From positions 32,207 to 96,206 of the forward strand of contig JAXHUE010000002.1 in NCBI GenBank assembly GCA_034189655.1: a stretch of DNA of 64,000 nucleotides, given 5' to 3'. The number at the start of each line of letters is the position of its first letter. Position 1 is the first letter of the stretch. This document shows positions 8,522-13,085 of this stretch, one piece after another. The notes under the pieces are model-generated. The model searched no databases and had not been told where the DNA came from. It saw only the letters and a list, made by a program, of their open reading frames with translations. This DNA is from Chloroflexota bacterium. Lineage in GTDB: Bacteria; Chloroflexota; Dehalococcoidia; E44-bin15. The position numbers and the translations under genes were made by a program.

Positions 8522-10372
8522 ATGACAGAACTAGACCGCATACTACCCCGCGTGACCAGACCCGCCCGCTACACCGGCGGCGAGTGGAACAGCATCATCA
8601 AAGACTGGGAGACCACGGAGGTGAAGGTGGCCCTGTGCTACCCCGACGTGTACGAGATAGGCATGTCCAACCTGGGGCTGTCCGTGCTGTACGACCTGGT
8701 GAACAGGGAGCCCCATGCCCTCGCCGAGCGCGTGTTCGCCCCCTGGGTGGACATGGAGGCCGAGCTGCGGCAGGCCTCTGTGCCCCTGTTCAGCCTGGAG
8801 TCGCGACGCCCCATAGCCGACTTCGATATCATCGGCTTCTCCCTGGGCTATGAGCTCACCTATACCAACGTGCTCACGGTGCTCGATCTCTCCGGGATAC
8901 CGCTGTTCGCCGCCGAGCGGGACCGCTCTCATCCCCTGGTCATCGCCGGGGGGAGCTGTGCCCTAAACCCCGAGCCCATGGCGGAGTTCGTGGACATCTT
9001 CTGCCTCGGCGATGGCGAGGAGGTGCTCCTTGAGCTCATCGATGCCTACAGGCGGTGGCGCTCGGCGGGTGCGGGGCAGCGCGATGAGCTGCTGCGGGGG
9101 CTTGCCGCCATCCGCGGCGTCTATGTGCCCAGCCTCTACCGCACAGACCACGGCGGCGATGACACGCCCTGTACCGTCAGGCCGGCGGCGGACTGGGTGC
9201 CCGCGGTGGTGGAGCGGCGCATCGTGGAGGAGCTCACCCCCACCGTGACCAGGCCCATCGTCCCCTTCGTTGAGACGGTGCACGACCGTGCCGCCATCGA
9301 GATACAGAGGGGCTGCACCCGGGGCTGCCGCTTCTGCCAGGCGGGCACCATCTACCGTCCCCTGCGCGAGCGCCCCCTCGAAGAGGTGATGCAGGCCGCG
9401 GACGAGCTCCTGCACAGTAGCGGCTACAACGAGCTCTCCCTCGTCTCCTTAAGCACCAGCGACTACAGCGAGATCGATACCCTGGTGGGCAGGCTCACCG
9501 AGCGCTACCGGGATGACTGCGTGAAGCTCTCTCTGCCCAGCCTGCACCTGGGCAGCTTCTCGACGAGGCTGATGGACTCCTTCGCCGATGGCAAGAAAGG
9601 GGGCCTCACCTTTGCCCCGGAGGCGGGGAGTGAGAGGCTGCGCTGTGCCGTAAACAAGGTCGTGCCGGAGGAGGAGCTTCTAAAGACCCTCGACATGGCC
9701 CAGGAGCGCGGCTGGGGCAGTGTCAAGCTGTACTTCATGCTGGGCCTCCCCACGGAGACCGAGGGCGACGTGGAGGACATAGTGCGGCTGGTGCGCACCA
9801 TCCACCGCTCGCGGCGGAGGCAGGGGGGCAGGCCGCTGCGGGTGAAGGTGAGCGCCTCTCCCTTCGTGCCCAAGGCGCACACCCCCTTCCAGTGGGTGGC
9901 CCAGGATACGGAGGAGGTGCTCGGGGCAAAGGTCGCCGTCGTGAAGGCCGGGCTGAGGGGGGTGGGGGTGCACCTGTCGTGGCAGGACGCGAGGATGAGC
10001 CTGCTGGAGGGCGTGCTGGCGCGGGGCGACCGACGTCTCTCGCAGGTCATCTACCGGGCGTGGCAGATGGGCTCCCGCTTCGAGGCGTGGAGCGAGCACT
10101 TCGACTACGACCGGTGGCTCCGTGCCTTCGCCGAGTGCGGCCTGGATCCCTCATTCTACGCCCACCGCGAGCGGCCGCTCGACGAGGCGTTGCCCTGGGG
10201 CCACATCGACGTCGGCGTGAGCACGAGTCACTTGAAGAGGGAGTTCTTGAACACAAAAAACGGTGCAGTGACCGAGGACTGCCGCTACGGCCACTGCACC
10301 GCGTGTGGTCTTCAGCGCTGGCACGGAGGGTGCCAGCGGCTCTATCAGAACTCTTCCTCCTCCTCGTCGTAG
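8522..10372 (+). CDS. B12-binding-domain radical SAM protein (TIGR03960-like)
   Basis: N-terminal [23 protein letters not shown], radical SAM cysteine motif CTRGCRFC, about 616 aa. C-terminal tail NSSSSSS arises from a convergent overlap with the next gene. Confidence 0.8.
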
Positions 10373-12816
10373 TACTCAGCCGGCTGCTGCGGCTGTCGCG
10401 GCCCTGCCGGGCGGGTGAGGAGCACGATGAGCAGGATGAGGAGGGCGGCCCCCACTACCCCGATGATAACCCAGTACCACCACACCCACTCGAAGCCACC
10501 GGCTGCCTCTGACGCGAACACCGCCCAGCTACTGAGCTGATTGGTGGTGGCGCACACCGTCCCCGCCGAGGTGCTGACCGTCGAGGGCACTATCTCCCAC
10601 GACGAGGTGCTGGTGTTGTACCTTGCCAGCGTGAGCTTGGTGGCATCGCCGCCGGCGGCATTGACGTCGGCGGAGGTGTACCTCACGCAGATGGTGACAT
10701 CAGCACCCAGCGTCCCTGTGGCCGGCGAGGTGGTGATGGAGAAGTAGCTGTTGCCCACCTTGTAGCCCGTAGGGGCCACCGGTGTCGACGTTGAAGAGAT
10801 GGTCACCGTGGTGCTCTGGGTGAAGGCACCCGAGGGTATGGTCAAGGTGACCCTGCTGTCGCTGGTGGTCACTGTTCCGCCCGTCGTCCCCACGGTACCT
10901 GAGCCCTGGAAGGGCGGCGTCGTGGGCGTCGCTGTCGGCGAAGGGGTAGGCGACGGTGTCGGCGAAGGGGTAGGCGACGGTGTCGGCGATGCCGTCGGCG
11001 TTGGCGAAGGAGTGGTCGTCGGCGTCGGCGTCGGCGTGGGCGTCGCTACCGGTGTCACCGTGGGCGTCACCGTCGGGGTCACTGTCGGCACCGTGGTAGG
11101 TGTCGGTGTCGGTGTCGGCGTCAGCGGGAGCGTGAGGTTCACCTTGAACTCGAAGTCCTTCTCCGCGGTGGCCTCCTCGTTGCTCCCCTTGTCGAAGGAG
11201 GAAACGGTGATGCCGTAGAACTGGCCGTTTATAAACGAGGGCAGTGCCGGCGTGGTGGAGGTGGTCACCTTCCAGTCTTCTGAGAGCTCGTTGAAGGTGC
11301 CGTCGGTGGCGGTGGCGAAGATCCAGTCCCACCACGCTGTGCCAATGTTCCCCCACTCGTCAGTGCCCCAGCCGGCGCCGTTCCACACCGGGTCGACCCC
11401 GGTATCGAAGCCATCTGCGCCCAGGTCGTGCCATATGCGCACGATGACGGCGTCTATCTCACCGGAGGCGTCCCCGGCCACGCCCTGTATGCTGGTCAGG
11501 CTGTTGTACACTATGCTGGGGATGGCGTTTATGCTGGTGTCGGGCACCGTGTCATCGTAGGTGAAGGACTCGGTGTTGGAGAGCTCAGGCGTGTTCACGC
11601 CGTCGTCGGACCTCACCTGCACCTGGTAGGTATCGCCGTCCACCCAGGTGGGAAAGCCGTCTTTCATGTCACCGGGGTCACAGGTCCAGTCCTGCTGGTC
11701 GTCTCCCCACAAAGTACCAAGGGTGCAGATGGGGGCGTTGGCCCAGTCCAGGTCGCCCTCCCAGTTGTTGAGGTCAAGGTCCCAGTCATCGCCGTCCCAG
11801 TACATGTCGTTGGTCTGGTCGTATATCCTGATGCTGACGGTTGCCACCAGCTCACCGGTGCCTGGCCTGGAGGTGCCGCTGAACTGGTTTATGTAGGCGT
11901 AGTTGGGGCCGATGTACTCGGGGAGGGGGTCTACGTAGGCATCGGCCGTGGTGAGCTGCTTCCTGTAGGTGAAGGTCTTAACCTCATCGACGAAGTCCCT
12001 GTTGTCCGCCCCATCGGCGGTCTGGGCGTCAATGGAGTACATGTAGCCGTTGTACCAGTCGGGCAGGGGCGGGGTGGTGTTGGTGGCTATGCGCCACGAC
12101 GTGGTGCCCGCCGTCTTGATCCACACCTCGTCGGCCTGCCAGAAGCTCCCGTTCCAGCACAGGTCGTCACCGGCATCAAAGATGCCATCGGTTCCTCCAG
12201 CAGGTGAGTCCCACCATATCATGGTCCGCACCTGGTTGATGGTGCCTGGGGAGTTGTCGGCAGCGGTACCCTCGACCTCGGTGAGGGAGTAGATGGTGTC
12301 GGCGAAGGTGGTGGTGAAGCTCACGTCCGGCAGCTCATCGTCTAAGGTGAAGGTGCCGGAGGACGGGCTGTTGTCCACGTAGCCGTCATCGTCCACCGCC
12401 CTGGCGTACACCGTGTAGCCCTTGCCGTTGGTCAGGTCTGTCTGCAGCATCCCTGCACCGGTGGTGAAGTCCCAGTCCCACTGGTTGTCTCCCCAGTTGG
12501 GGCCGGGGGCTATATCGTTCCACAGGTCGGGGTCATTCACCCAGGCGGTGCCGCCATCGTCCCAGCGGTAGCCGTCGTGGTTGCGCACGATCTGTACCTG
12601 GACAAAGTCGATGGTGCGCGGCGCCTCGCAGATGGACGTGCCCGAGATCATGGGAACGTCGTTGGTGAAGGCGGGCAGTGGGTCCATGTAGGTGTTCGGC
12701 GGTGTCACCGCCTCTGCCGGCCCGGAGCGGGCCAATGGCAGCGCCACGGCCACCAGTGCGAATAGCATGACTACTGCAATCGTGACGCGCCACCAGGAAC
12801 CAGACATACTGTTCAT
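10345..12816 (-). CDS. Cell-surface protein: signal peptide, 4 W/D-rich ~130-aa repeats, Pro/Thr linker, C-terminal beta domain, TM anchor and acidic cytoplasmic tail ([10 protein letters not shown])
   Basis: 823 aa. N-terminal hydrophobic signal ([19 protein letters not shown]). Four repeats sharing [IV]R[IM][WY].D..W..G..W motifs. About 75-aa (PT/PS)n linker. C-terminal hydrophobic helix [24 protein letters not shown], then a charged tail. RBS AAAGGAGAGGAAAG before the ATG. Confidence 0.8.
10905..11135. repeat. Low-complexity tandem DNA repeats encoding the Pro/Thr/Ser linker of the surface protein
   Basis: 24-nt unit GTCGGCGAAGGGGTAGGCGACGGT repeated in tandem, plus (GTCGGC)n and (GGTGTC)n runs on the plus strand. 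Codes (SPTP)n/(TPTV)n on the minus strand. Confidence 0.7.
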
Positions 12817-13085
12817 CTTTCCTCTCCTTTCAGCCGTTTGAAGCCCTTCTGCTCACAAAGAGGGCCGAATGTCCGGTGCGCGAGATGGGCACGTCGACAC
12901 TCAGCTCCAGAATTGCTCCTCCAGCTTTGAGAGATTGGAGCCAATATAGGGGGCTTCATAGACCCAAATTCCATATTCTATCCTTTTACCACATACAAAG
13001 CTAAATGTCAACACCTTTGGGGAGGGAATCGCCCCATATTTTGTTCTATTTTGCGCAATTTTATCCGTGAGGCCGCCGCGCACTC

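Follow-up and report, generated by a model that had tools for sequence, protein, structure and literature searches.

A gene on the minus strand of the window (64,000 nucleotides of contig JAXHUE010000002.1 from a Dehalococcoidia bacterium of the phylum Chloroflexota) encodes what is probably a Sec-exported, transmembrane (TM)-anchored surface protein made of four Ig-like domains, a Pro/Thr stalk, a membrane-proximal domain of the MAIN type, one TM helix and an acidic tail, in a copy that does not cleave itself. The open reading frame and overall architecture of the preliminary description are real (Table 1); its signal peptide, single C-terminal TM helix and acidic tail are all confirmed by hydropathy and sequence. 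The N-terminal hydrophobic segment covers residues 8–32 and is followed by AEA↓V, a site derived through the AXA rule and not by a predictor. The protein is very acidic, with a net charge of about −69. Its placement in the envelope with a membrane anchor, as first proposed, is well supported; the protein would be Sec-exported with a type-I topology.

Table 1. Features of the surface protein gene and its upstream region (window positions; aa, residues of the protein)
Feature	aa	Position	Strand	Basis
−35-like box TTGACA		13006..13011	−	read from sequence; invariant in 4/4 orthologous upstream regions
Candidate −10 TAAAAG		12988–12983	−	17 nt downstream of the TTGACA box
5' leader, ~165 nt, Shine-Dalgarno at its end		12817..12982	−	
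Strong Shine-Dalgarno AAAGGAGAGG		12830–12821	−	
CDS, 823 aa + stop, ATG start, complete	1–823	10345..12816	−	ORF call; positional ortholog of Dehalococcoidia family
Signal peptide (R10, hydrophobic core 11–28, AEA↓V)	1–36	12709..12816	−	hydropathy
Ig-like repeat R1, subtype A	37–165	12322..12708	−	alignment; model all-beta, pLDDT mostly above 90
Ig-like repeat R2, subtype B, canonical WNGxxW type	166–292	11941..12321	−	z 19 vs R4
Ig-like repeat R3, subtype A	293–421	11554..11940	−	z 7.7 vs R1; model
Ig-like repeat R4, subtype B	422–561	11134..11553	−	alignment; model
Pro/Thr/Ser stalk	562–634	10915..11133	−	composition; DNA tandem repeats
ZU5/GAIN_B-like (MAIN-type) beta-sandwich domain	635–771	10504..10914	−	
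Cleavage-triad site, Q760-L761-S762 in this copy	760–762	10531..10539	−	model strands, codons
TM helix with conserved WWYW..IG start	~778–802	10411..10485	−	hydropathy; family conservation
Cytoplasmic tail, begins RP, acidic, 21 residues	803–823	10348..10410	−	

The membrane-proximal region, first described as a beta-rich Ser/Thr domain, does contain a beta-sandwich; however, its identity as a ZU5/GAIN_B-like domain of the autoproteolysis type had been missed. The model of the domain (pLDDT 87.2) matches the fold of ZU5 and of GAIN subdomain B, and the broad family profile A4 matches the ZU5 of ankyrin-2 with E = 7.9e-7. Against Pfam ZU5 (PF00791) the window domain alone scores 20.9 bits, just under the cutoff of 21, while the relative P0162 scores 30.2 bits, above it. 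The top PDB match of a C-terminal sub-profile is the GPS of BAI2, with HFS aligned on HLS, although its E of 0.8 is not significant alone. From model and sequence together, the domain is best read as a bacterial domain related to the self-cleaving GAIN/ZU5 module, degenerate in the window copy. ZU5 autopeptidase domains were predicted in large bacterial surface proteins by Zhang et al. 2012 (PMC3482391); evidence that GAIN-like self-cleaving modules work in bacteria came only with a 2026 preprint, on wall-anchored proteins (10.64898/2026.05.12.724683).

Compared by published description, the MAIN proteins of that preprint (Brogan & Rudner; B. subtilis YfkN) have the same order of parts: signal peptide, adhesion domains (Ig-like included), GAIN_B-like sandwich and surface anchor; in the window protein, signal peptide, passenger domains, MAIN-type domain and surface anchor are all present by hydropathy and models. 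YfkN cleaves at HF↓S, and the consensus of the present family is H-[LF]-S at the same turn between the last two strands. A word-indexed search turned up no named relatives. A profile search recovers 5,214 representative proteins at E ≤ 1e-3, the distant matches carrying GH81 and beta-helix passengers and LPXTG and SLH anchors, which fits the published description of MAIN proteins; like these, the wider sequence family includes LPXTG- or SLH-anchored and glycosidase-bearing members. Unlike most MAIN proteins, which use sortase, wall-binding or SLH anchors, the protein has a TM helix as its anchor, followed by a conserved acidic tail predicted to be cytoplasmic, and Dehalococcoidia receive no mention in the preprint.

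The GAIN/GPS of adhesion GPCRs and polycystin-1 has the motif W...C.x.H-L↓S-x-F-A-V-L in register with the family, and adhesion GPCRs likewise place the domain extracellularly, directly before a membrane span, with a mucin-like stalk and Ig-type adhesion domains upstream. The window protein differs in having one TM helix and not seven, one Cys pair (Cys710, Cys755) and not two disulfides, and no helical GAIN_A; in the C-terminal model the PT linker runs straight into the beta-sandwich, and the helices are limited to one short intradomain helix and the TM helix. Sequence similarity to GPS is not significant alone (E 0.08–1), whereas the family profile match to ZU5 (ankyrin, UNC5, PIDD, ZO-1) is. 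Eukaryotic ZU5 domains are cytoplasmic, unlike the predicted extracellular, membrane-proximal position here; those of ankyrin do not cleave. The SEA/SEAL domains of mucins and clostridial RsgI (PMC10556640) share the proposed logic of membrane-proximal self-cleavage at a beta-turn with a force-releasable ectodomain; however, their fold is a different alpha/beta sandwich, to which structural search gave no match.

The family consensus H-[LF]-S lies where the chain turns from the penultimate strand into the last one and aligns with H-L-S of the BAI2 GPS; HxS/T is present in 137 of 214 complete domains, and most orthologs have H-[LF]-S. The window copy has Q-L-S instead, unlike YfkN: Q760 (codon CAG) takes the place of the His, and a residue count finds no His in residues 633–771. 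The copy is most likely a non-cleaving variant because the His is replaced by Gln760 in a domain with no His at all, and its release module is apparently switched off. By analogy with MAIN and GAIN domains studied experimentally, orthologs with H-[LF]-S are expected to cut themselves at this last beta-turn, which would leave the ectodomain bound only non-covalently to a stub of the last beta-strand, TM helix and tail, from which force could shed it. The uncut ectodomain of the window copy would stay covalently tethered and serve as a fixed adhesin or a subunit of the envelope coat.

It is considered rather improbable that the window copy still cleaves, with Q760 tolerated or another residue acting as general base, so that force would shed this ectodomain too. 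The copy keeps the nucleophile Ser762, Leu761, the invariant Cys710/Cys755 pair and SWAVF, the motif of the last strand, and P1' Ser/Thr is more widespread among the 214 complete domains than His (187 against 141), 46 of the 73 His-less domains retaining it. In FIIND domains, cleavage at S-F↓S relies on a distal His; together with these His-less domains, this means that loss of the P2 His is no proof of lost cleavage. The window domain has no His that could substitute, however, and Gln is unable to serve as a general base. The sister sequences P0013–P0017 (HIG, YVG, QIG) have lost the nucleophile itself; cleavage is therefore dispensable in part of the family. The H836S mutation, moreover, impairs autoproteolysis of latrophilin-1 (CL1; PMC3321182).

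The TM anchor and poly-Glu tail were both recognized earlier, but the conserved, clade-specific anchor module that they form went unnoticed. The motif Y.{0,2}E3-5[FLI]-COOH ends 28 of 30 anchor-bearing proteins; the tail and the start of the TM helix are far more conserved than the ectodomain and are common to at least three ectodomain architectures. The tail is predicted to be cytoplasmic because Arg residues follow the TM helix. No domain or motif library recognizes the tail, and among the C-terminal sorting signals of NCBIfam (LPXTG, PEP-CTERM, PGF-CTERM, GlyGly-CTERM and similar) the sole match is GG_III-CTERM at E = 1.7; where such signals end in a short basic tail, this one runs to 21 residues, is acidic and shows its conservation at the very C-terminus. 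Paralogs lacking the MAIN-type domain have the same tail, and its role is therefore independent of cleavage. The WWYW..IG-TM-acidic-tail unit would amount to a clade-specific signal for anchoring or coupling, so far undescribed, in many surface proteins of wall-less Dehalococcoidia.

The surface gene, with 1–3 tandem paralogs, has a core-genome position whose gene order is conserved (gyrA ... surface gene, convergent radical-SAM gene, rplU); relatives of the family are found in Dehalococcoidia/Dehalococcoidales MAGs only. In the window, L001 and L003 alike, a gene for a TPR protein stands two genes away in conserved order. The protein could be imagined as a single-pass mechanosensor, in which shedding (in HLS orthologs) or tether force passes via the TM helix to the tail, which would bind a cytoplasmic partner or be released by intramembrane proteolysis. 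The conservation of tail and TM start across architectures fits such a sensor, the position of the motif at the extreme C-terminus suggests recognition of the free carboxylate, and, according to the preprint on MAIN proteins, signalling by their C-terminal fragment has yet to be described (10.64898/2026.05.12.724683). The TPR gene, however, is linked by synteny alone, with gyrA in between; most TM-anchored relatives of the MAIN-type domain have ordinary short basic tails, the MAIN-less paralogs keep the acidic one, and the tail may be a simple topology or retention signal. Sensing by this route is judged highly improbable, and it is equally doubtful that the MAIN-TM-tail subgroup of Dehalococcoidia is a bacterial single-pass counterpart of adhesion-GPCR/Notch-type mechanoreceptors with the TPR protein as candidate partner.

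Four repeats of about 130 aa had been counted in the ectodomain; the four are real, all pairs scoring above 300 shuffles in local alignment (z 3.9 to 19.1), but they are unequal and belong to two alternating subtypes in the order A-B-A-B (R1 and R3, z 7.7; R2 and R4, z 19). The proposed recurring pattern [IV]R[IM][WY].D occurs once, as VRIWHD at residue 459, and W..G..W does not occur; the actual motif is W.G..W, at residues 221, 340 and 478. The claimed richness in Trp and Asp is far above local background (20 Pfam-supported ORFs from the same window), with Trp at 5.33% of the repeats against 0.85% (maximum 2.05%), a six-fold enrichment, and Asp at 13.3% against 5.6%. The AlphaFold model of the four-repeat unit is all-beta (pLDDT 86.3, pTM 0.82); the repeats are confidently modelled as Ig-like beta-sandwiches, divergent relatives of bacterial Ig-like (Big_3) repeats. 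Pfam finds no domain above thresholds in the window protein, a weak Big_3_3 match at residues 525–558 within R4 reaching E = 0.41 and 10.7 bits against a cutoff of 27. Big_3_3 or Big_3_2 is matched in 9 of 21 family members (best E = 2.8e-6), and phmmer reaches P0018 (E = 8e-44; Big_3_x precomputed), P0019 and one NCBI 'Ig-like domain repeat protein'. By Pfam thresholds the repeat thus lies outside the known domains, as had been stated, but not by its modelled fold and its link by sequence to Big_3. The preliminary description had left the matter to AlphaFold and homolog searches, with a known domain family of known function as the outcome against it; the Ig-like sandwiches go only half of this way: the Ig fold is familiar, but no specific function attaches to it.

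The window repeats share with the Big_3_2, Big_3_3, Big_3_4 and Big_13 group the beta-sandwich fold, D.T.P at domain starts, G(T/V)A.D, [YW]W[ND]G..W, LP.W and, near the end, D.(A/G)(G/D)N; they differ in falling below Pfam thresholds through divergence, in alternating between two subtypes and in carrying large loop insertions rich in Trp and Asp, above all in subtype A. It is possible, if quite unlikely, that these loops are aromatic platforms and Ca2+ sites for CBM-like capture of glycans or particles, tethering polymers or mineral surfaces. The enrichment in Trp, with 13 Trp invariant over 21 family sequences, speaks for capture, as does the frequent fusion of lectins and glycosidases to MAIN domains (10.64898/2026.05.12.724683). 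Pfam gives no CBM family match, however, the protein has no enzyme domain and the gene no adjoining glycan-use genes; W.G..W also belongs to the canonical Big_3 repeat core, and many Trp may therefore be structural.

The PT/PS linker, earlier put at about 75 aa, is confirmed as a stalk of 73 residues (Thr 30, Pro 27, Ser 6) encoded by degenerate 12/24-nt tandem repeats at 10913–11126; it could keep the Ig array some 20 nm away from the membrane. The spurious matches in the PDB arise from this stalk.

The low GC noted upstream of the gene is borne out (0.50 against 0.62–0.70). The promoter-like TTGACA belongs to an extended −35 box, GT(A/G)TTGACAT, identical across four orthologous upstream regions; a strict sigma-70 scan of the region is nevertheless negative, because the best −10 at 17-nt spacing, TAAAAG, is imperfect, and the invariance of the −35 box makes a promoter there credible. 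Regulation through the leader, also proposed, is not supported: it has no Rfam family match, its folding against background gives a z of only −1.98, and its conservation is limited to the Shine-Dalgarno and a short TCTC.CAA box. Of the regulated, possibly high expression suggested earlier, the conserved −35 box and strong Shine-Dalgarno remain, and nothing else.

An S-layer or adhesin-type role of the window protein is plausible. Archaeal S-layer glycoproteins such as Haloferax volcanii SLG are acidic, with Ig-like domains, a Thr-rich stalk and a C-terminal anchor (a PGF-CTERM/archaeosortase signal with lipid attachment), in a host without peptidoglycan. The likeness is one of layout, and the ZU5-like module and acidic cytoplasmic tail set the window protein apart. 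On this model of a TM-anchored coat, the four rigid Ig-like domains would tile into a lattice on the PT stalk, the ZU5-like domain being a mere pedestal. The pTM of the four-domain unit, which indicates a fixed inter-domain geometry, is consistent with a coat subunit, as are the extreme acidity, the conserved locus with its tandem paralogs, and the consensus −35 box and strong Shine-Dalgarno. The Deinococcus HPI S-layer protein is among the Foldseek matches, although these are generic Ig arrays in which HPI ranks just 25th, and Pfam and NCBIfam scans of the window protein find no SLH or known S-layer domain. The reported Dehalococcoides S-layer candidate is said to be an unrelated BNR-repeat protein. 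S-layers are on record for Tepidiforma and Dehalococcoidaceae, and peptidoglycan is absent from isolates of Dehalococcoidales (PMC10284905). A pedestal would leave the strong conservation of the autocleavage triad in most orthologs unexplained, and the lattice subunit is judged unlikely.

The favoured reading, a TM-anchored Ig-repeat protein with a non-cleaving MAIN domain, would have, from the outside in, four rigidly packed Ig-like domains of two alternating subtypes with Trp/Asp-rich loop elaborations, then the Pro/Thr stalk, the membrane-proximal ZU5/GAIN_B-like domain, one TM helix and the 21-residue acidic tail. The GAIN-like module here directly adjoins a TM helix whose predicted cytoplasmic tail is strongly conserved, in a class whose best-studied members are wall-less; no bacterial family so far comes closer to mimicking the layout of animal adhesion receptors. 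Putatively cleavable (HLS) and putatively non-cleavable (QLS, HIG, QIG) versions and MAIN-less paralogs at one conserved locus provide a ready-made comparative experiment. The family also supplies a definite candidate for a major protein of the surface or coat in a group that is environmentally important and poorly represented in culture. For the window copy the message is more modest, that of an Ig-repeat surface protein whose release module is seemingly off.

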